Shown here: positions 3,781-15,364 of the stretch, in pieces | How the letters are laid out: each line of letters begins with the position of its first letter | Position numbering within the stretch: position 1 is the first letter of the stretch | Assembly: GCA_032372955.1 (NCBI GenBank) | Contig: GCA_032372955.1_4725.1 | DNA length: 64,000 nt | Source of the DNA: Escherichia coli | GTDB taxonomy: Bacteria; Pseudomonadota; Gammaproteobacteria; Enterobacterales; Enterobacteriaceae | Strand: one strand, 5' to 3' | Notes under the pieces: model-generated | Database searches by the model: none | What the model was told of the DNA's origin: nothing | Seen by the model: only the letters and a program-made list of their open reading frames with translations | Translations under genes and position numbers: made by a program

Positions 3781-5082
3781 ATGACACCTCGTGAATATTT
3801 CCTTTACGCGATGCGTGAAGGGCACTACCGATATCTTGAATGGATTAACGACGCATTTGCTTTTACGGAAGGTGGCGCTGAAAAATATCAGCCTAAATTA
3901 CGTCGTCAAGGTAACGTCGTTACGGTTACCATCGACGGTGAAGAACACCGATGGGAAACCGAGCCAACAAAACCCTTGTTGAATTTCTGGGATCCGTTGG
4001 AGCTTGCACCTGGCGATTTACCGTCGGTTAAGAACACAACCACCACAACCTTCGGTGAAGCGTTGTTCAATATGTACGTCCTTTATGACGCTTTCGGTAT
4101 TCAGATTGAATATCAGGCAGGACGGTTAACCAGCGGTACACTAGAATCACTGATTGCGCCGCGCGTAGCAGACGATCCCGAAGAGGGAATACCCGATCCT
4201 AACGAACGCCCTATTGGCCCACTGTACGCAAGCGAAGTGAAGAAATTCACCAACAATATCAGTGCATTAACCGCTATCAACCGTTTAATTGTCCCGTCAA
4301 TGAGTGATAAAGCGTTAACGGTCGATGATGATATTATTGCCTATCGTGATAAAGAGTTGGCGCGCTTACAAGAGGAAGGTAAGTTCACGCCTGAAGAACT
4401 GATCAAACTCGAAGCCACGCTAACCAAAATGGATAAGGAATCCTTTAAGGGCGATGAATCGGAAGGGTTCTATATTAACCCAGGCAAGAGTTTCGGTAAT
4501 ACTCGAAAGAAAACACACATCATGATGGGGGTTGAAGCCGACTTCGTTGACCCCGGTAAACGTAACGTTATCACACACAGCCTGGCTGAAGGGATGCGTG
4601 TCGACCATTGGGCGGAGTACAACAACAGTGCGCGTGCGGGTTCGTTCTCACGTGGTGCGTTAACCGCTTTAGCTGGACAGACGGCGAAAGAATCACAACG
4701 TGCAACACAGAACCTTAAAATCACGATGGACGACTGCGGTACCCACGAACATATTCTTTTCACGGTAAACCGCGACCACATCAAAGATAAGCTGCTTGTC
4801 GGCCGTTACATGATCGACGGCGCGGCGCTTAAACTTATTGATGCTGAATTACTTGCTTCTTTGGAAGGACAAACCATCAAGTTACGTGATCCTCAACGTT
4901 GTAAAGCAGGCCCATTGGAATACTGTGCTACCTGTTGCGGTAACGCGATGGCTCCAACCCCAGATGCGATCGGGGCAGAGATCACCGGCGTAAACAACGT
5001 TTTCATGAACACTATGATGAAAGCAATGCATAACGCCAGTGTATCGTTAGCGCCTTACGATCCTGAACTTTATATTAGTTAA
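3781..5082 (+). CDS. Multisubunit RNA polymerase beta-prime-like fragment (bridge helix, zinc-binding segment, start of trigger loop)
   Basis: NSARAGSFSRGALTALAGQ resembles the beta-prime bridge helix; KITMDDCGTHEHI matches the bacterial beta-prime VTEDDCGTHEGI block; a Cys cluster CKAGPLEYCATCCGN and DAIGAEITGVNNVFMNTMMKAMHN (cf. [25 protein letters not shown]) follow, then the ORF ends. Confidence 0.65.
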   Translation: MTPREYFLYAMREGHYRYLEWINDAFAFTEGGAEKYQPKLRRQGNVVTVTIDGEEHRWETEPTKPLLNFWDPLELAPGDLPSVKNTTTTTFGEALFNMYVLYDAFGIQIEYQAGRLTSGTLESLIAPRVADDPEEGIPDPNERPIGPLYASEVKKFTNNISALTAINRLIVPSMSDKALTVDDDIIAYRDKELARLQEEGKFTPEELIKLEATLTKMDKESFKGDESEGFYINPGKSFGNTRKKTHIMMGVEADFVDPGKRNVITHSLAEGMRVDHWAEYNNSARAGSFSRGALTALAGQTAKESQRATQNLKITMDDCGTHEHILFTVNRDHIKDKLLVGRYMIDGAALKLIDAELLASLEGQTIKLRDPQRCKAGPLEYCATCCGNAMAPTPDAIGAEITGVNNVFMNTMMKAMHNASVSLAPYDPELYIS

Positions 5083-5107: not shown

Positions 5108-5734
5108 ATGAGCAAGAATAAAGACCAACGTTCTGCAAAAATGGACGAGGAGATTACTGCGGTAGAAACCACCGTTGCAGATGCTCCGGTTAGTGATGTT
5201 GTAGCACAGCCGGAAACGGTCGCTGTTGAGAAGAAGGAAACCGTTGTTGAAGAAAAGCCTGCGAAACCAGCAGTGAAAGAATCGCCAGCTGTTTCTATCG
5301 TGGCTTCTCGTGCCGCAACCCTGGTTGCTCCGTTCCAGAAATATGCGGAAGAAATGGGTCCGACCATGCCGCAAACACCGCAGTCGTTGATCCGTCATCA
5401 GCGGTCTTTAATGTCTGCTTTCCGCGCGTTACTGGATGTGGATAATCCTGAGGTTTTCCGCACCGCCTTTGCTGATATTCTGAAAATCTGGAAAGATAAC
5501 AGCGAAGGGGCATTTAATGCAAACCGTTATCTGTATCGCGGTATCGATAACATGCCGCTGGACTACCATACCCGCATGGCTTTCCTGACAGTACTGCGTC
5601 TGATGGATGCGATCTATGATGAAAGCCGTCGCCAAGTTGAAATCCGCGCTATCGACCTTAATATCGCAATTCCTGAAATTGCTTACTTCGATACGCGTAA
5701 CTATCTGGCGGGTTACATGCGTCGCTTTGCATAA
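5108..5734 (+). CDS. Hypothetical protein (208 aa) with A/E/V-rich N-terminal region
   Basis: ORF with AAGGAAATAAAC before the ATG; host-like codon usage. Confidence 0.55.
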   Translation: MSKNKDQRSAKMDEEITAVETTVADAPVSDVVAQPETVAVEKKETVVEEKPAKPAVKESPAVSIVASRAATLVAPFQKYAEEMGPTMPQTPQSLIRHQRSLMSAFRALLDVDNPEVFRTAFADILKIWKDNSEGAFNANRYLYRGIDNMPLDYHTRMAFLTVLRLMDAIYDESRRQVEIRAIDLNIAIPEIAYFDTRNYLAGYMRRFA

Positions 5735-6568: not shown

Positions 6569-6994
6569 ATGTTACAAGCTATAACCGGGCATATTACCGC
6601 TAACTATATCACCGTTGTAGAATTTCTACGTAAACGAAAATACGAAAAACAAAACCCAATTCTTGAAGATGATACGTACAAAACAAAAATCTTTCGCGTC
6701 AATCGCAATACAACCGTCGCAACATCTGAAACAGGTTACACGGTTTATATCGATTGTGATGGATTAATCCCTAACGTTAAAGCGCGTGCGGCAACACTGT
6801 TAAAAGTCAAAGCGTTGCTAGATAAAAACAGGCCGCGCGTCATGGGTTTTGACGGCAAAGACATTGCTTTTGTTTATCACTTCGACAAACGTTATTCATT
6901 TTTCCAGTATTACAGCCGAGACGGTCTGTTAACCCATAACGGACCGGCGGTTGAGATCTACAGTCGTTATGCCTTATATGCATCACTGAATTAA
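6569..6994 (+). CDS. Hypothetical protein (141 aa)
   Basis: ORF with AAAGGATGTCGAG before the ATG. Confidence 0.5.
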   Translation: MLQAITGHITANYITVVEFLRKRKYEKQNPILEDDTYKTKIFRVNRNTTVATSETGYTVYIDCDGLIPNVKARAATLLKVKALLDKNRPRVMGFDGKDIAFVYHFDKRYSFFQYYSRDGLLTHNGPAVEIYSRYALYASLN

Positions 6995-7029
6995 TTTTCC
7001 TGCGTGTGTCTGACGTTTTGGTGGGGTTC

Positions 7030-7053
7030 GCCCCACCTTTTTTACAGCTTTTC
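7030..7053 (+). terminator. Rho-independent terminator
   Basis: GGTGGGGTTCGCCCCACC perfect hairpin followed by TTTTTT, 36 bp after the stop at 6994. Confidence 0.7.
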
Positions 7054-7091
7054 ATCATTAATTGAACTCAAGAGAATTTAAGGAATTCGAT

Positions 7092-7694
7092 ATGTCAATT
7101 ACCCAATTCGCGAACAGCATTCGTTCCAGTGAAACCACCGTACAGCTCCTTAAAGACGAGCTGCGTAAAGAACATGAAACCGCAGCCAACTATCTGAAAG
7201 AAATCGAAGCGTTAGTTTATCGTGAACTGGATAACGTAGAACGTTTCTTGCAGGCGGGTATGGATGAAAACATGGATCCAAACAAAGAAGTGTTAAAGCC
7301 ACGTGTTGACTTTTACGGTTCAGATATTGATCGTGCGATTATTCGCATGTATCCTAACGATTATGTCAAGGTCGACCTCAACCCAATTGTAACCAACATC
7401 AATATCGACCTGAAAGAAAAGATCGATCTGCCAAAACCCGATGGAGATATCATGCACGCGATGAATGCGATCCCGGTACTGAAAGCATCTATCGTCGACA
7501 CGCTCAAGGAACGCAATGAACGTCGTCTGGTTATCAGCGTGGATTCCGATTCGGTTTCTTTTTCGGTCTACATCGATGCTGACGGTGAAGAAGGAAATCC
7601 AAAAGACGTACACCGTCAACTTGCTGAGTATATCGGTGAGAGACCGAGTTTCGGTATGGGTTCCATGATCGTCAACATGTTAGAAAGCATGTGA
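7092..7694 (+). CDS. Hypothetical protein (~200 aa)
   Basis: ORF 7062..7694; the internal ATG at 7092 has an AAGGAA ribosome-binding site. Confidence 0.5.
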   Translation: MSITQFANSIRSSETTVQLLKDELRKEHETAANYLKEIEALVYRELDNVERFLQAGMDENMDPNKEVLKPRVDFYGSDIDRAIIRMYPNDYVKVDLNPIVTNINIDLKEKIDLPKPDGDIMHAMNAIPVLKASIVDTLKERNERRLVISVDSDSVSFSVYIDADGEEGNPKDVHRQLAEYIGERPSFGMGSMIVNMLESM

Positions 7695-7728
7695 TCGTCC
7701 TATCCCTAACTAACACTTATTTAAAGAG

Positions 7729-8241
7729 GTGAATATGAATAACGAAGTAAATAAGAAAGTTGAAATGCGTGGTATTTGCGGACGTCCTGCAGAGACGTCT
7801 AAAATAAAGGATAGAGTGATCGCCCTTCTCAACTTAGTGCCTGACACCACGCTGGTTACATGTTGGGATATTATCGATACAACGATACTGCGATTCGAGG
7901 CGAATTTAAGAAACAACAGTTGCTGGAGCCCTGCTTTGTCGGCTGATGATAAAGTCTATCTCGTAAACGAGACACCTGCTAAAGATAATAATCGTATCGA
8001 TCGTTGGCGTTTTGCGTTGCACGACAACATTGTTAGTATCGACGTTATACTGAGTATAACAGGTGAGTCGTGTATTGCCGTCAATGAAATAGCGGCATAT
8101 GCCAAACTAAAATTAGCACAGTGTTTTCATACACGCGTCCGTGGATTCGATATGCCTGTTACATTAACAATCAACGGGCACGACGGTTCAGGGCTGTTCG
8201 AATTCCACTACGATCCTGACAATGAAAACACAGAAGAGTAA
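7729..8241 (+). CDS. Small protein, paralog family A (member 1)
   Basis: C-terminal region (MPVTLTINGHDGSGLFEFHYDPDNENTEE) parallels the next two genes (LEYEPDNGTE, MEYSPDEEG). Confidence 0.5.
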   Translation: MNMNNEVNKKVEMRGICGRPAETSKIKDRVIALLNLVPDTTLVTCWDIIDTTILRFEANLRNNSCWSPALSADDKVYLVNETPAKDNNRIDRWRFALHDNIVSIDVILSITGESCIAVNEIAAYAKLKLAQCFHTRVRGFDMPVTLTINGHDGSGLFEFHYDPDNENTEE

Positions 8242-8312
8242 TTAATCAACGATATCGTGTCCCTTGTTAGGTGGGGCACGTATCGGTTAAAAGGTGTCGA
8301 AGGTGTTAAAAA

Positions 8313-8774
8313 ATGACGACATGGGATTCTTACGGTGAGCAGCTGGTAGAATCGATAATTAAAAGCTTTGAAATACTCGAAGTAAGATTGCAGGAGGACG
8401 GGTGCTGGGAATTATTTAACGAGCCCGATTCCGACTCCGAACCTTACTTCTACAACCTATCCGTTCCAACAACACAACACGGCAATGCTACGATTGTAGA
8501 TATCACCGATATCAGAGTTTACAATAATCGTATCGCTGTAATAGCACGACTGCCTTTTAGCGTAAACGGGCTTGCCGCAAAGCAACTTCTAATGTATACA
8601 GCCAACGAGACATTTGGTAAATGCATAAAGTCGCACGGTATCTCGTTCCCCCTAGCGATCGATTATGAATTATCGGATGGCTGCAATCTCGTTACATTGG
8701 AGTATGAACCGGATAATGGAACAGAGATAACAGCACTCTCTGTTCCGATGAAGATGAAGAAAGAGGTAGAATAA
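8313..8774 (+). CDS. Small protein, paralog family A (member 2)
   Basis: Shares RLPFSVNGL / LEYEPDNG blocks with 8774..9232; stop overlaps the next start (TAATGG). Confidence 0.55.
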   Translation: MTTWDSYGEQLVESIIKSFEILEVRLQEDGCWELFNEPDSDSEPYFYNLSVPTTQHGNATIVDITDIRVYNNRIAVIARLPFSVNGLAAKQLLMYTANETFGKCIKSHGISFPLAIDYELSDGCNLVTLEYEPDNGTEITALSVPMKMKKEVE

Positions 8775-9232
8775 TGGCAACAATGTATTCATTCGAATCT
8801 AACGTCAACGAACTTTTCGACTCGCATAGAGACACTTACGTCACGCCTGTTGCTGAGACCGTCACTCGAAGTATCGAATCCCTCAAACAAAATCTACGTA
8901 AATCCGATATTTGGTCGATGGGACATAGCGATAATGACGGGACGTATTTTACCATCGTGGAACGTATCCCAACAATACCGTTTCATAGCGTTTATCTTGA
9001 CAGTACCGTTGTTTTCTATGTTTACAAGCATCGTATCCTTATCAACATACAACTACCATTCAGCGTCAGCGGGGTTGATGCTATACGTCGGTTGGCTGAT
9101 GTTGCTAATAACGCATTTACGAAATCAGCTATGCCGTGCGATTTCCCTATTACATTAACACTCAAGTTTTCCGATGGTTATGAATTCTACACGATGGAAT
9201 ACTCTCCAGACGAAGAAGGAGCTAAGGGATAA
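8774..9232 (+). CDS. Small protein, paralog family A (member 3)
   Basis: QLPFSVSGVDA and MEYSPDEEG blocks collinear with member 2; same length class (152 vs 153 aa). Confidence 0.55.
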   Translation: MATMYSFESNVNELFDSHRDTYVTPVAETVTRSIESLKQNLRKSDIWSMGHSDNDGTYFTIVERIPTIPFHSVYLDSTVVFYVYKHRILINIQLPFSVSGVDAIRRLADVANNAFTKSAMPCDFPITLTLKFSDGYEFYTMEYSPDEEGAKG

Positions 9233-9234
9233 TC

Positions 9235-9999
9235 ATGTCTATCAAAGATAAAGTTCAGCGATTAATCGAATTCAACCAACAGTGCCGTATTGATGAACTC
9301 GTCAATCTCGTAAACCATATATTCGATAAGTTTGAAGAATCGTTAAACGACGATATGTGGGATACCGATATCGTAAACGGTAAAGCGTATCTTCGGAAAA
9401 CCGTAGCGGATACTGATAGGGTACAATTTCTGGAATTCGGTTTAACTGACGATGGTGCCGTTATTCATGCGTTATTACCCCCATGTTTAAATAACGTTGA
9501 TGTATTAACATACAAACAACATCTATCCGAAATTTTCCAAACAAGAACCTCAAAGTACGAATGTCATATTCGTTTAATGATGTGTTTCCCCATGGAATCT
9601 AACGATAGCAAAACAATAACATTCGATACAAAAGAAATCGCAGATGAAATCTACGTCGATAGCGCAAGGGCTCGTGTCGATCGTATCGTCGATATGTTAG
9701 TTGATGTTGCACGTTCATTCAGTTCAACATCAGACTCTAAGAATGGTTACGTATGTGATTACGTGCATGAACCGTTACGGCGCATCGTTGCAACTCAGAC
9801 AGACAAAGGCATCAATGTTATTGGGGTAGTAAGTGATTTGTCTATGACCGACAACGACAATCTTGAGTTGAGAAGGATCTTCGAAACACGATTGCGAAAC
9901 TGCGCATCGAGATACAAAACATCTGTCACCTTCACCCTCTGTTTTCATCCCGCCATCATGTCGTGGGTAACAACTGTTGATAAAGAAAACAGTAAATAA
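9235..9999 (+). CDS. Hypothetical protein (254 aa)
   Basis: ORF tightly packed after 8774..9232, with AGGAGCTAAGGGATAATC before the ATG. Confidence 0.5.
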   Translation: MSIKDKVQRLIEFNQQCRIDELVNLVNHIFDKFEESLNDDMWDTDIVNGKAYLRKTVADTDRVQFLEFGLTDDGAVIHALLPPCLNNVDVLTYKQHLSEIFQTRTSKYECHIRLMMCFPMESNDSKTITFDTKEIADEIYVDSARARVDRIVDMLVDVARSFSSTSDSKNGYVCDYVHEPLRRIVATQTDKGINVIGVVSDLSMTDNDNLELRRIFETRLRNCASRYKTSVTFTLCFHPAIMSWVTTVDKENSK

Positions 10000-10035
10000 G
10001 TAATATTTCCAAATCGATAACATTAAGGATAAAAA

Positions 10036-10431
10036 ATGAGCATTGTAGAATCCATCGTTAAAGCTGTTAACGACAACATCGATCATCCGCGCATTTCTAC
10101 CATGATCGATATTATTAAACAAGAAAAAACACCTGGTTCATACATTCGTTTTACCCGTTTTGATAGCAGCGATTTACTTTTCACTGTGAAAACCGAGGTT
10201 CACGAGCAACGTATCATCGTAGAGGTCCTGGTAAAGGAGAACAAAGAACTAGACTGGCACTCTGTTCGTGGTGACAGAGACGCGAGAAATTTACTTAAAG
10301 AACATCTCTGTAAAGTGGAAGAGAAATACAATATCCCATTTAGCTTAGAGGTCAATCTTTTCCCAGCGTACCTGCTCTGGTACGTCAGTAGTGAGAAGCA
10401 TGTCGAAACGACAACTGACGTCAAAGAGTAA
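10036..10431 (+). CDS. Small protein, paralog family B (member 1)
   Basis: MSIVESIVKAVNDNIDH and EEKYNIPFSLEVN blocks shared with 10468..10866. Confidence 0.55.
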   Translation: MSIVESIVKAVNDNIDHPRISTMIDIIKQEKTPGSYIRFTRFDSSDLLFTVKTEVHEQRIIVEVLVKENKELDWHSVRGDRDARNLLKEHLCKVEEKYNIPFSLEVNLFPAYLLWYVSSEKHVETTTDVKE

Positions 10432-10467
10432 ATATACGTGATCAATAACAAACTAGGGATTAAAAAG

Positions 10468-10866
10468 ATGAACGTTGCTGATTCCGTCGCTAAAGCGGTC
10501 ATCGATAACATCGACCATTCGTATATTCCCGCCATGATCGATCTGGTTAAGCGAGAAAACGTATCTGACTCGTTGATGTGCTTTAGTCGTATGCTCGACC
10601 AAGCTATACTCGAGGCTGTAAACGTCAGCGTACATCGCCAACATGTTCTCTTCGAGGCGTATATAAAGAACGACCAACATCGATTAGGCCACCACGCGTT
10701 ACGACACGACGAGAACGCGCTGGAGCAGCTAACGAAATGTCTTTATGCGCTGGAAGAGAAATATAACATTCCTTGCTCTCTAGAGGTTAACCATTACCCA
10801 GCGTGTCGGATTTGGCGTATCGCTGGTAAGAAAGGCGCGACGCCTTCAGCTGATTGCGAAGCATAA
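10468..10866 (+). CDS. Small protein, paralog family B (member 2)
   Basis: MNVADSVAKAVIDNIDH and EEKYNIPCSLEVN blocks; ATG at 10468 aligns with the paralog N-terminus (track start 10438 is GTG). Confidence 0.55.
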   Translation: MNVADSVAKAVIDNIDHSYIPAMIDLVKRENVSDSLMCFSRMLDQAILEAVNVSVHRQHVLFEAYIKNDQHRLGHHALRHDENALEQLTKCLYALEEKYNIPCSLEVNHYPACRIWRIAGKKGATPSADCEA

Positions 10867-10877
10867 CAACGTAGCAT

Positions 10878-10921
10878 AGCCCCTTCCCTAGCCATCAAGG
10901 CCGGGGAAGGGCTGTATACCG
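10878..10921 (+). terminator. GC-rich hairpin (CCCTTCCC/GGGAAGGG) followed by CTGTATACCG
   Basis: Immediately after the stop at 10866; same architecture as the other hairpin-TATGC elements. Confidence 0.45.
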
Positions 10922-10941
10922 ACTACACAGGAAAAGAAACA

Positions 10942-11394
10942 ATGAACATGAAAACCGACAAATCTATGAAAAAGCGCTTAGATCGTCTATTCAATGGTCC
11001 CACGGCAGCCTCCGTCGTTGAGGATGTTATTACTCAAGCATTCGAATGCATGGACAGAGGTCTTAACAGCATCCTTGGATGGCATCAGAAAGAACGTGAA
11101 GGTAAGCTCGTCCAGTGTTACAACGAACGTCACTTCGATGATAGTGGTATCAGTGGCGATTACTTTATCTATTTATTTCCCGATAAAATCACGATCAACA
11201 TTGAATTCGATAATGCGATGAACGATCAGGAAATAACATCGATGCGTCAAGCCGCGAAACAAGCCTTCGGACGTTGCGTGGAGCAATACGATCCCGATGT
11301 GTTTATCACATGCCGCATTTTCATCGAGCCGCGAAAATTAATTCAGCATATGTCCTACGGCACCACGTACACTGACGAATCCAACAAGGAATAA
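10942..11394 (+). CDS. Hypothetical protein (150 aa)
   Basis: ORF with AGGAAAAGAAACA before the ATG. Confidence 0.5.
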   Translation: MNMKTDKSMKKRLDRLFNGPTAASVVEDVITQAFECMDRGLNSILGWHQKEREGKLVQCYNERHFDDSGISGDYFIYLFPDKITINIEFDNAMNDQEITSMRQAAKQAFGRCVEQYDPDVFITCRIFIEPRKLIQHMSYGTTYTDESNKE

Positions 11395-11504
11395 AGAACT
11401 GAACCATAACAGCAACGCCAAGAGCCTTATTTGTAGTTTCAAGTATACCTCATCAAACATGAATTAACACGTCAATCAATCGACATAACCACTAGGAGCA
11501 TTCA

Positions 11505-11990
11505 ATGAACATCAACTTTACTATCGAATCCGGCGATTACATGAACGATCGTGATATCATCACATTCTACCGCGAGGATTTTCGCAACGCTATTCTTAAA
11601 ACGATTGAGGATGTCTTGGATCTCGCTGAAGATCAACTTAGCAGCATCACCCCTGAAACACACATAAAAGCACGCGACGAAGCTCTGGGTGATTTGTATA
11701 TACCTAAAGCCTGTGATCGCTGCTGCTTCACTGATTTCTTCGTGTCTACGCAAGCGGTCGTTACCGACGATGGGAAGCATCACGTGATCCTTATCTTGGC
11801 TTCTCATGAGCCTATGATCAATCACGCACTTTCTTTTACACCCGGGTACATCTATGCCCTTGCAAACAAACCGATGATCAACGAAATCATTGCTGACATC
11901 CTTAGTCAGATTTGCAAAGAACATGGATTCCTGTCTATTTTCTTAACCGACGCTGACTACAAAGTAACGGCTGGCAACGAACGCGCATAA
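11505..11990 (+). CDS. Hypothetical protein (161 aa)
   Basis: AGGAGCATTCA before the ATG and a hairpin terminator right after the stop; the overlapping minus ORF 11502..11924 lacks these signals. Confidence 0.5.
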   Translation: MNINFTIESGDYMNDRDIITFYREDFRNAILKTIEDVLDLAEDQLSSITPETHIKARDEALGDLYIPKACDRCCFTDFFVSTQAVVTDDGKHHVILILASHEPMINHALSFTPGYIYALANKPMINEIIADILSQICKEHGFLSIFLTDADYKVTAGNERA

Positions 11991-12052: not shown

Positions 12053-12690
12053 TAAACGAGGATCAACATACTTGATTCATTCGATGGTCCGCGCTTCCTC
12101 TTTTGGACGTGTTGCATCGAAATGCTCTAAGAGTTCAAACATCGATGGTGCTTTATAAACGATTCTACAGAAGTCTACAGCGTTCGTTTTACCTCCGGTA
12201 ATAAAGTTGATACCTAACTTCCTGAATTGATAGTCAGAGACGCCCTCAATGCGCGAGAGCTCACGAAAAACACACGCTCTGGATAGATTCAGCAGGATCT
12301 GCCCGTTGGGGTAGGACGAGGAGATGTCAAGCCATTGTCCACATAAGACGCAACTCTTATGCCGGTGTGTGCCACCCGCCTAAGCTTTCACTTAGGAGCA
12401 GACTATATCATGGAATGCTTTCGCACCCCTCCCGTGTTTGAGGACGCTTGTCCCTTACTCCGCGCGACCGGATAGTCGTTGAACGTTCTTCTTAGGTCTT
12501 ATTGCTGATGCATGCCCTTAGAAGCTTCGCTGCTGATTGCCCATTTATCGTTTCCTTACGAACATCCTTTCTGTTTTCTAACCTTGACGTTTTTCTTTTC
12601 AGAATCCGCTGTGGTCGAAAGGCTTTAGGGGGTTCCAGCAATTAACGGGAATCCGGTGGGGGCGTTATCCCCACCGGGACCTAAAATCGG
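12053..12690. other. ~640 bp tract with no ORF of 60 codons or more in any frame (candidate structured RNA, intron remnant or decayed gene)
   Basis: Lies between the terminator at 11992..12052 and the HNH gene stop at 12691; contains a TCTTATGCCGG motif and a hairpin at 12654..12678. Confidence 0.3.
12654..12678 (-). terminator. Hairpin just downstream of the HNH gene stop (no obvious U-tract)
   Basis: CCGGTGGGG-cgttat-CCCCACCGG, 9-bp perfect stem, 13 nt 3' of the minus-strand stop codon. Confidence 0.35.
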
Positions 12691-13797
12691 TTAAGCGTCG
12701 TTAAGACCGACAGGCATCGAACTGACATCTTCAAAATAGCGGAAGATGAATGGAGAACGACCTTCTGTGATCCTATTACGACAGTACTTCGTGATAGTCA
12801 CGTTAGAAACACCCGTCTCTCGTTGTGCGTGAGCAATTGATGCAAACACATAACGTTTACCGGTTTGTTTATCGATAGCCGCGATAGGGTGACCCATATC
12901 GTATTCCTGAAGACGACGATGTTGTCCGATCTGCCAATCTGGCCACGGAGTATCATCGTCAACTTCTTTGAAATACAGATTACAGGCTGGCATGAATTTC
13001 GTTTTACGCGTCATCCAATACCAAACACGTTTACGTTCCAAGCATGGATAAGCAGCACAACACGCGGCAATAGTCGGGAACACCCTAATCTCACCGGTAT
13101 TGTAATCCTTAACCTTAACAGGATGTAAGCCTTCCGTACGAAGACCATTATCAACTGCATGCTTATTGTTCTCAGAATAGGTTGTCCATTCAATGTTGCC
13201 AGGACGGTTATCCCATTTGATGCCGTTCTTGTGATTGATGATCTTTGTCATCACATCGGCACCGTATTCCAGGAACACGTAACCCATCGCTCGATGCTGG
13301 AACATTTGAGCTGTGAAACCGTTGTCATTAACAACTCGTTGAAAGAGATAACCAGCACGTTTATTTCGCGCCGGATCCCCTTTCGACCGTGTCCATGATT
13401 TCTTCTGCCCGGTTAAAAGACTAATAACTTCACCCTGTTCATTCATCACGTAATGCGTGAAGAACGGGACATAGTAATAGCCGGGATAACCTTTATGTTC
13501 CAACTTACCGTTCTTGAAACGATAAAGCAAATTCTCACGTTTGATGTTTTCTGGGTTCCCATCGATATACAACGAATGTGCTTCGTCTAAGAGATCTTCG
13601 TATATGTTAATAGCGTGCAGTTTACGCATTACCACAAGACCTGCGTCATACAGACCAGGACCACGGTACCAGTCAAGTTTGACGTACGATATTCCGTCTT
13701 CCACGATAAGCGGTAACGGCTTCATATCGAGGTCGAAGATACCTTCTTCGGAAACAACACATTCAGTAATCTTTGGATACTCATAACTACTTGACAT
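12691..13797 (-). CDS. HNH homing endonuclease
   Basis: HKNGIKWDNRPGNIEWTTYSENNKH is a canonical HNH block; the likely start is the second ATG at 13797 (MSSSYEYPK), 7 bp after AAGGAG; the track start is at 13824. Confidence 0.8.
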   Translation of the reverse strand: MSSSYEYPKITECVVSEEGIFDLDMKPLPLIVEDGISYVKLDWYRGPGLYDAGLVVMRKLHAINIYEDLLDEAHSLYIDGNPENIKRENLLYRFKNGKLEHKGYPGYYYVPFFTHYVMNEQGEVISLLTGQKKSWTRSKGDPARNKRAGYLFQRVVNDNGFTAQMFQHRAMGYVFLEYGADVMTKIINHKNGIKWDNRPGNIEWTTYSENNKHAVDNGLRTEGLHPVKVKDYNTGEIRVFPTIAACCAAYPCLERKRVWYWMTRKTKFMPACNLYFKEVDDDTPWPDWQIGQHRRLQEYDMGHPIAAIDKQTGKRYVFASIAHAQRETGVSNVTITKYCRNRITEGRSPFIFRYFEDVSSMPVGLNDA

Positions 13798-13864
13798 ATC
13801 AACTCCTTGCTCGCTTAGTATCATACTTATCGAGAAAGGAGGTAAAACTTAACCGATTTATTTC

Positions 13865-15364
13865 TTAATCCGCAACAAATAATCTAATATAACTTCTCAG
13901 GTTCGGCATATCCCAGAAGAGATGGATGCCGTTGTCCGCCATGAGATCGCATGGCAATGTGACGATATGTCCGGTTCGTGAGATAACCCACTTATCTTCT
14001 TCCTGGGTCATGTCGTCGGCGGTGCATCCCATGACTTCCCCACGGTTAAGATACACGAAGAAAAGTTTATCGCAGATACGTTTAGGGTTAGAACTGAAAT
14101 CTTTCAAATCCGACGCCGCCAAACGAATAGGGATGGTCATCGAATAGTCTTTTGTTTTCTGGTCCAACGCCTCGATGCCTTGGTTATCCCAAAGGTTATA
14201 TACACCGTAGTCGATTTGATGGTTCGTTTGCATCTCTTCGTGCCATGCAAGCTCCGTGAACCCTTCTGTACCAGGAATCGCTTTTAATTTCGTATGGCAT
14301 TTATTTCGCTCTAACACCGCATCGAGTGAATAACGTCCTTCATCCGGTCTTCCTAAACGAACGAACTTATAACCACACATCGCATCCATAACCTGATACG
14401 TGGCCATCGTATAAAACATCGGCCATGTTTGCTCAAGGGTAAGGTTGGTTTTACGACCTGAAGCAGATACCTTGTCGGTCTTCGGTGGTACCCAGCGAGC
14501 AATACGATACTTAGGTGGTACACGAGGATCGGAGAAAACATCCTCGGGACGATACCCTTCCTCGTTCAGTGCCTGGAGCATGCGCGGAATATCGAACGCA
14601 ATATTCCAGCCAAGGAGATAATCCGGCTGCCATTCGTGAACCTTCTGCATGCATTGGATGACCGCTTGCGCCGGGCTTTCTACGATTCGCACATCGTACT
14701 GATATTTTTCAAATGCGTGAGGATCTTCTTTGGTGTTCAGACGTTCGGCCAGGTAATATCGAATCTTCTCATGGGTTTTCTCAATCGCATTCGGAATATG
14801 ACCAACGAAGTCCTTGGTATAGCAAAGGATCGCATTGTATCCCATTGTAATAGACATACAGACGATCTTACCGTGTCCATGGACAACGTCGGTTTCGATA
14901 TCGAAACAGGCAATGGAAGCGGGTAATTTATCGACGTATTCCGGCCATTTTGTATTGTATTGGGTTTTTAAATAACAGCTGGCGCTAACGTCCGTGCCGT
15001 AGAGGTAGGGACTCCGTGCAAGTTGTTGTAAACGGGTGTTATCGTCAGCACGTCTTTTATAAAGCACCGAACTGATCTTTTCAACCAGTTCACTTTGACG
15101 GACATCGTAGCGTCGCACATGCGAGAGCTTCTCGCTTTCCTTTTTATATTTGTTCTTGCGTTTACTCTCTACCGTCACCCAAAACGGACGTTTGTAATTC
15201 TCGAAGAAGCGAAGGTTCGTCGCTTGCGTATTATCATCAAAGAACATGATCTCTTTTGCGATCATGAGGTCGTTCTTACTGCCATCGTTCGCTTCGTTAT
15301 AGCTGATGTGTCGACATTGAATACCGAGCAGTTTCTTCTTAGGTTTTCGTTCTTGTTCGCTCAT
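13865..15364 (-). CDS. DEDDy 3'-5' exonuclease domain protein (family-B DNA polymerase proofreading-like); no polymerase motifs in this ORF
   Basis: Exo I FDIET, Exo II WNIAFD, Exo III YNLWD (YxxxD) in canonical order and spacing; the ORF ends about 100 aa after Exo III with no DxxSLYPS or YGDTDS blocks. Confidence 0.65.
   Translation of the reverse strand: MSEQERKPKKKLLGIQCRHISYNEANDGSKNDLMIAKEIMFFDDNTQATNLRFFENYKRPFWVTVESKRKNKYKKESEKLSHVRRYDVRQSELVEKISSVLYKRRADDNTRLQQLARSPYLYGTDVSASCYLKTQYNTKWPEYVDKLPASIACFDIETDVVHGHGKIVCMSITMGYNAILCYTKDFVGHIPNAIEKTHEKIRYYLAERLNTKEDPHAFEKYQYDVRIVESPAQAVIQCMQKVHEWQPDYLLGWNIAFDIPRMLQALNEEGYRPEDVFSDPRVPPKYRIARWVPPKTDKVSASGRKTNLTLEQTWPMFYTMATYQVMDAMCGYKFVRLGRPDEGRYSLDAVLERNKCHTKLKAIPGTEGFTELAWHEEMQTNHQIDYGVYNLWDNQGIEALDQKTKDYSMTIPIRLAASDLKDFSSNPKRICDKLFFVYLNRGEVMGCTADDMTQEEDKWVISRTGHIVTLPCDLMADNGIHLFWDMPNLRSYIRLFVAD

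Follow-up and report, generated by a model that had tools for sequence, protein, structure and literature searches.

The β′ middle subunit of the virion RNA polymerase in a Goslar-like jumbo phage ends inside the trigger loop

The open reading frame (ORF) at 3781-5082 on the plus strand of the window, by which we mean the whole 64-kb stretch of DNA analysed here, is the gene for β′M, the middle of three polypeptides into which β′ of the virion RNA polymerase (vRNAP) is divided. We propose that it represents β′M of the vRNAP in Goslar-like Chimalliviridae, that its chain ends by design at the tip of the trigger loop and that a partner polypeptide completes β′. We assign this reading a probability of about 0.85. 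The identity of the ORF, the motif map, the fixed end of the chain and its coincidence with known insertion sites come from the present analysis; virion membership and the five-piece composition of the enzyme are taken from the literature. The features of the gene are as follows.

3781..5082, plus strand: complete vRNAP β′ middle subunit gene (β′M), 433 amino acids (aa) plus TAA stop, ortholog of Goslar gp078.
3781..4530, plus strand: N-terminal region, residues ~1-250, homologous to the N-terminal part of the non-virion RNA polymerase (nvRNAP) β′C and confidently folded in AF2.
4567..4725, plus strand: F-loop and bridge helix, residues ~263-315, from alignment to E. coli β′ and a profile match.
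4729..4749, plus strand: DDCGTHE block, residues 317-323, with C319 as first zinc-site ligand (E. coli C814).
4900..4938, plus strand: Cys cluster C374, C382 and C385 (plus C386), from profile alignments (E. coli C888, C895, C898).
4966..5031, plus strand: trigger helix 1, residues 396-417, from an AF2 helix of low confidence, BLASTP to gp165 and manual alignment to E. coli.
5032..5082, plus strand: C-terminal tail of 16 residues (418-433) and stop codon, the chain break in the trigger loop and a family-wide end point.

Over 3 kb around the ORF, which runs from ATG to TAA, the window is 94.4% identical in nucleotide sequence to Escherichia phage vB_EcoM_Goslar (in reverse orientation), and the encoded protein is 99% identical to Goslar gp078. 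To judge by this identity, the phage is a close relative of Goslar, a nucleus-forming chimallivirus and thus one of the φKZ-like jumbo phages. A 431-aa CDS of phage SPN3US, consistent with gp42, aligns across residues 1-433. PHROG 2962 ('RNA polymerase beta subunit', 433 positions) matches residues 1-432 of 433 (E = 1e-105), and an exhaustive search with a family profile returned 935 β′M representatives at E <= 1e-30, with a typical length of 431-439 aa. Compared with the vRNAP β′M proteins Goslar gp78, SPN3US gp42 and φKZ gp80 (PHROG 2962), the ORF belongs to the same family and has the same length, motifs and end point, and we see no difference of substance.

Homology to cellular β′ is supported at several levels. 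In a single-sequence phmmer search against PDB, residues 263-329 align ungapped to E. coli β′ 758-824 (E = 0.003), a stretch comprising the F-loop, the bridge helix and DDCGTHE; the same search also matches the AR9 non-virion β′C chain 7s00_D. With a profile of eight family members the PDB match extends over residues 261-395 and β′ ~750-903, through the CxxC zinc ligands (E = 4e-7). Comparison of the ORF family with the nvRNAP β′C family by hhalign gives a probability of 96.6% (E = 5e-10), spanning 189-431 on the β′M side and 138-382 on the nvRNAP side. When the AF2 model was compared to PDB with Foldseek, the top 29 matches were all β′ or phage β′C chains; the best was AR9 7s00_D (E = 1e-4), and the alignments to the AR9 β′C chains 7s00_D and 7s01_D cover 435-476 columns. 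PHROG 3015, a profile of 653 positions, matches only residues 261-389, at profile positions 212-343. Pfam-A revealed nothing relevant for the ORF and four neighbours, and no family at E <= 1 for the ORF itself, including RNA_pol_Rpb1_3/4/5. This reflects the sensitivity limit of the Pfam models: PF04998 detects only one out of eight nvRNAP β′C proteins.

Concerning the predicted fold, overall pLDDT of the AF2 model is 63.8. It lies at about 66-92, mostly >75, across residues 1-160 and below 50 over the bridge helix and the trigger helix. AF2 does place helices at 274-293 and 299-315 in the bridge-helix region (pLDDT <50) and a helix at 396-417, likewise of low confidence, which ends at H417. 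Because of these low values, the bridge-helix and trigger-helix assignments rest on sequence alignment.

Alignment to E. coli rpoC and profile comparisons both pair C319, C374, C382 and C385 with the zinc ligands C814, C888, C895 and C898 of E. coli β′. These four cysteines and H417 are invariant in 155/155 diverse family members, and a matching Cys cluster is found in the nvRNAP paralogs (C341, C350 and C353 in φKZ gp74). Trigger helix 1 follows. In a manual alignment to rpoC with a one-residue gap, AIG (396-398) and M413-K-A-M-H417 correspond to AIG (914-916) and M932-R-T-F-H936 of E. coli. BLASTP to the nvRNAP β′C gp165 supports this mapping, through 'STKHH', with hhalign and BLASTP differing by ~10 residues in where they place the last helix on the nvRNAP paralog. 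In E. coli, trigger helix 1a holds all side chains that contact the NTP, namely M932, R933 and H936 (Windgassen et al., PMC4227799). The alignment puts all three equivalent positions, M413, K414 and H417, inside the ORF. The position of M413 is occupied by M or L in 155/155 family members. K414 (nt 5020-5022), at the position of E. coli R933, is variable, with K in 82, A in 28, S in 27 and G in 13 of 155.

The chain ends 16 residues past H417 (His+16). Among the 155 aligned family members, 148 end exactly at His+16 and all end at 15-19 residues past the histidine, even though the tail itself (418-433) is poorly conserved in the β′M family. For the best 150 of the 935 representatives, the match leaves no more than a few residues uncovered at the end of the profile and at the end of the protein; none of these 150 carries a C-terminal extension, and some carry N-terminal extensions. 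We also noted four proteins of 573-604 aa (P0139, P0152, P0158, P0219) with an N-terminal extension of ~145-157 aa before an otherwise full-length match. Fusions of an HD nuclease to a vRNAP subunit are described for Bacillus jumbo phages (2020 review, PMC7598289). Within the tail, the residues A-P-Y-D-P-E-L-Y-I-S were considered as a possible start of trigger helix 2 (compare L-P-R-V-x-E-L-F) and rejected, the positions not being conserved in the family.

The end of the chain coincides with a place where other polymerases carry additional domains. By alignment to rpoC, the inserted domain SI3 of E. coli begins at His+7. In φKZ gp74, helix 1 comprises T365-V383 and the trigger-loop insertion domain residues 396-533; our own alignment identifies H388 as the conserved histidine of gp74, so that the insertion starts at His+8. 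Since SI3 starts at His+7 and the gp74 insertion at His+8, the vRNAP break is placed at an insertion-tolerant site of the trigger loop: as aligned, it falls in the loop tip, no more than ~8-9 residues from the sites where other lineages carry insertions. The paralogous nvRNAP β′C chains (φKZ gp74, AR9 β′C, Goslar gp165) share the core from the N-terminal region to trigger helix 1 with its histidine, and then run on for ~275-290 residues, through the insertion domain (396-533 in gp74, 400-508 in AR9) and helix 2 to the C-terminal tail. The end of the vRNAP chain is at the start of the nvRNAP insertion, within about 8 residues on either side. In BLASTP, residues 248-429 of the ORF align to 205-394 of the 668 residues of Goslar gp165, which continues for a further 274 aa. 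Expressed in β′ regions, the ORF ends after a16, that is after trigger helix 1, and lacks a17-a20. A tblastn search with Goslar gp165 (L013:1366-3372:-) returned SPN3US-type, OBP, Aeromonas, Bacillus and Staphylococcus jumbo phages as subjects, and similarity stops at query residues 379-385, at the trigger-loop histidine; conservation in the nvRNAP paralog thus also collapses at the trigger-loop tip.

These results bear on an earlier note on this DNA, made from the sequence alone. The bridge-helix-like block, DDCGTHE, the Cys cluster and the partial trigger loop that it had described are all present and align to the expected β′ elements. Its claim that the ORF stops inside the trigger loop is borne out by paralog, hhalign, rpoC and family alignments, which place the end between trigger helix 1 and trigger helix 2, and its suggestion of a split polymerase from a φKZ-like jumbo phage agrees with the identity to Goslar and with the literature, in which the other β′ pieces are separate. 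It had further stated that the remaining catalytic elements must be supplied by another polypeptide. This holds for one part: the DxDGD motif is absent from the ORF, which is homologous to one fragment of β′ rather than to the whole, and the NADFDGD/DPBB part, upstream in β′, is expected on a separate β′N (Goslar gp205). It does not hold for the trigger loop, where the positions of M413, K414 and H417 all lie in the ORF.

According to the 2020 review (PMC7598289) and later φKZ papers, the vRNAP consists of five pieces, namely N-, M- and C-terminal β′ and N- and C-terminal β. Apart from β′M, the Goslar pieces are β′N gp205, β′C gp210, βN gp207 and βC gp196. Thomas et al. 2016 noted that β′ regions a17-a20, which directly follow a16 with its lineage-specific insert β′In6, were unaccounted for in the vRNAP, and on the basis of genetics and proteomics nominated a 240-aa virion protein, gp244 of SPN3US (φKZ gp176, 201φ2-1 gp269), with weak HHpred support for gp244 as β′C (E = 0.05). 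In the same study, gp42 (431 aa) is the SPN3US vRNAP β′M and is present in heads, and an amber mutation in the βN gene gp241 removes both gp42 and gp244 from the particles. Goslar gp210 (236 aa, PHROG 2926) belongs to the SPN3US gp244 family and is a homolog of 201φ2-1 gp269 and φKZ gp176. We found this family in 275 phage records. In Goslar, gp210 is three genes from βN gp207 and ~115 kb from the β′M gene, and Goslar and SPN3US agree in its synteny with the βN and β′N genes. Within the 64-kb window, profiles of β′M, the gp210 family and nvRNAP β′C detected no other β′-like ORF and no partner, and none of the other four vRNAP pieces (β′N, β′C, βN, βC) is located there. The partner fragment that the earlier note expected elsewhere in the genome would, by way of Goslar, correspond to gp205 for β′N and to the putative β′C gp210, and its presence in this phage is inferred from that relative.

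Homology tests of the partner gave marginal values. The gp210-family profile returned only noise from PDB sequences, and Pfam recognised no RNA polymerase family in 120 gp210-family members. Against the nvRNAP tail, hhalign gave a marginal E = 0.03-0.06 on a collinear 'N-[IL]...R-[DS]-P...Y-R' motif; the score of 19.8 compares with 14.4 ± 2.0 for column-shuffled controls, of which 0/60 reached it. Comparisons of the gp210 family with the single gp165 sequence, the nvRNAP family and 81 bacterial β′ tails were marginal or null. As a positive control, the structurally proven nvRNAP tail was compared with the same 81 bacterial β′ tails and yielded E = 0.19, with the right motifs aligned. As this control is itself non-significant, the C-terminal β′ region is too divergent for such tests, and the assignment of gp210 as β′C is plausible and, given the insensitivity of the tests, unproven by homology. 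It rests mainly on genetics and proteomics and not on demonstrable homology.

In the arrangement that we propose, β′M would carry the F-loop and bridge helix, the second zinc site of β′ and, with its three NTP-contacting positions, trigger helix 1. The polypeptide would end 16 residues past the catalytic histidine, where cellular and non-virion phage polymerases tolerate large insertions. A virion protein of ~236-240 aa, of the gp210/gp244/gp176 type, would provide trigger helix 2 and β′ regions a17-a20 in trans, and the catalytically competent trigger helices would then be a hairpin made of two chains that lies against the bridge helix. In this hairpin the catalytic side chains would not be those of the partner, whose share would be the matching helix and, beyond it, the clamp/jaw region at the C-terminus. 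Its N-terminus may be helix 2 directly, or an insertion-type β domain followed by helix 2; either way the break would lie between helices 1 and 2.

For the first of these two forms, the gp210-family N-terminus contains a conserved helix of the pattern L-x-R-[DN]-P-x-x-V-x-A-x-L-x-E-L (L in 115, R in 116, V in 108, L in 111 and E in 107 of 120), which could be trigger helix 2, with a jaw-like β domain after it. The second form, which we regard as possible and hold only tentatively, is that the break joins trigger helix 1 to an insertion domain. The β-rich part of the partner (~14-105) would then be of the insertion type, like the nvRNAP trigger-loop insertion or SI3, and helix 2 would be the internal helix ~110-124 (I-Y-D-E-I-I-x-K-G). 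An extended hhalign alignment (144 columns, E = 0.06) pairs gp210 30-104 with the nvRNAP insertion domain and gp210 105-125 with the nvRNAP helix-2 motif 'LP..H..M.E..K'. The lengths agree as well, AR9 β′C 400-631 (TLID 400-508 plus tail) comprising 232 aa and gp210 236 aa, and the nvRNAP insertion start at His+8 is near the vRNAP chain end. All of these alignment scores are, however, non-significant. Moreover, the extreme N-terminus of gp210 is strongly conserved and by eye fits the bacterial helix-2 pattern L-P-R-x4-F-x-A (rpoC), and the following β domain with 'G-x-x-V-x-x-[SG]-x-x-L' resembles, again by eye only, the bacterial jaw region after helix 2.

It could also be that the vRNAP truly works with half a trigger loop, without trigger helix 2 and the β′ C-terminal region, and that the gp210/gp244 type is an unrelated co-packaged protein. 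We consider this improbable. That homology of the partner to β′ is not detected is uninformative here, the proven nvRNAP tail in the control being undetectable as well, and gp210 outscores 60/60 shuffles against that tail on a collinear motif. The loss of SPN3US gp244 from particles along with other vRNAP subunits and the conserved synteny with βN and β′N genes likewise speak for a subunit, as does the partner length of 236 aa, which is near that of E. coli β′ 1131-1375.

With respect to the question left by the earlier note, whether the polymerase is of the virion or the non-virion type, it is very unlikely that the ORF belongs to the non-virion (late) enzyme. The RefSeq label of Goslar gp078 is only 'RNA polymerase beta subunit', and the ORF and nvRNAP β′C have the core from bridge helix to trigger helix in common. 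The nvRNAP β′C of Goslar is, however, a different gene, gp165, which matches PHROG 3015 over its full length (E = 5e-170) and, as in RAY and φKZ, adjoins the non-virion helicase. The ORF matches that family over the core only, without the trigger-loop insertion and the C-terminal tail. Furthermore, virion mass spectrometry (LC-MS/MS) of Goslar lists gp78, gp196, gp205, gp207 and gp210 as vRNAP subunits. As its orthologs Goslar gp78 and SPN3US gp42 are virion components in published proteomics, packaging in the virion may be attributed to the product of the ORF by analogy. The literature searched yielded neither a structure nor biochemical work on the vRNAP of any jumbo phage.

We regard it as hardly credible that the ORF ends early by artefact or local mishap (through a frameshift, in a pseudogene, or in a gene interrupted by an intron with its second exon nearby), since, although group I introns occur in Goslar-type RNA polymerase genes and the window has one elsewhere, the same end point is found in 148/155 diverse family members and in Goslar, Rfam gives no intron near 5082, and the next ORF (5108-5734), which was tried as a continuation and rejected, lies in another frame, has its own ribosome-binding site, matches an unrelated PHROG and shows no match to the β′M, β′C or nvRNAP profiles.

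Two further regions of the window are worth recording. The sole Rfam match in the window is a complete group I intron at 12379-12704 on the minus strand (RF00028, 70 bits, E = 9e-16). It lies directly after a 377-aa ORF (12691-13824, minus strand), at the position of the Goslar NUMOD1/HNH homing endonuclease gp069, and a 499-aa DNA-polymerase ORF (13865-15364, minus strand); after the intron, the minus strand has a possible continuation reading frame of ~90 aa. Identity to Goslar is 95-96% in the flanks, but the intron-plus-endonuclease cassette of ~1.5 kb shows no nucleotide match to the one that Goslar has at the same site, a Goslar region for which Rfam finds no intron and none is annotated. 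Judged from this comparison, it looks like a swapped mobile intron cassette between otherwise near-identical phages. At ~6569-11990 on the plus strand, about eight small co-oriented ORFs (131-254 aa) correspond to Goslar gp070-gp076, all annotated as hypothetical. By eye, several of them share the motifs '...Y(D/E/S)PD(N/E)...', C-terminal, and '...NIP(F/C)SLEVN...', which suggests a possible tandem paralog family.

The discontinuity in β′M lies in the same place as that created by SI3 in E. coli β′, and the NTP-contacting positions are on helix 1 in both proteins. The E. coli polypeptide is continuous, with a domain inserted into its loop, whereas in the phage the main chain itself is broken; furthermore, the E. 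coli R933 position is not conserved in the phage β′M family. Distribution of the largest subunit over separate polypeptides that form one active centre is likewise known from cyanobacteria and plastids (γ/β′, β′/β″) and from archaea (A′/A″). In archaea, the boundary of A′ and A″ falls between bridge helix and trigger loop. The β′M/β′C split is the second, more C-terminal one in the jumbo phages and falls inside the trigger loop, a position that we did not find for cellular enzymes in the papers searched, which were not a systematic survey. As to the first β′ split of the jumbo phages, which comes after the DPBB, its position is that of the cyanobacterial and not of the archaeal split (PMC7598289).

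The object itself and the three-piece split of β′ are already known for Goslar-like phages and across the family. The β′M gp42/β′C gp244 split was described in 2016 and reviewed in 2020, and the three-way division has already been published in 2016, 2020 and 2026. Thus the split whose break point the earlier note had found interesting is not new. The word 'trigger' occurs 0 times in either key paper (2016; 2020 review), and we found no explicit statement of such a break in the papers searched; the published a16/a17 (β′In6) boundary implies it. Added here are the mapping of the chain end to His+16 in the trigger loop and the near-invariance of this end over 155 members. On the practical side, the annotation is confirmed, exact landmark residues are provided (C319, C374, C382, C385, M413, K414, H417 and His+16) and the basis of the partner assignment is made explicit.

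Cellular RNA polymerases all possess a trigger loop, a mobile element that closes over every nucleotide as it enters. As SI3, the phage insertion domains and the chain break all map to the loop tip, this tip appears as a general weak point of β′. It is conceivable, though improbable, that the vRNAP uses a trigger loop built in trans, with its chain end fixed to the residue (His+16), and that the break is functional: a cut at the most mobile element, together with the division into five small pieces, could keep the packed enzyme inactive or partly disassembled, let the pieces pass the tail and switch the enzyme on at re-association in the host. A trigger loop whose helices derive from different proteins would represent a natural experiment on how much covalent continuity the trigger loop needs.
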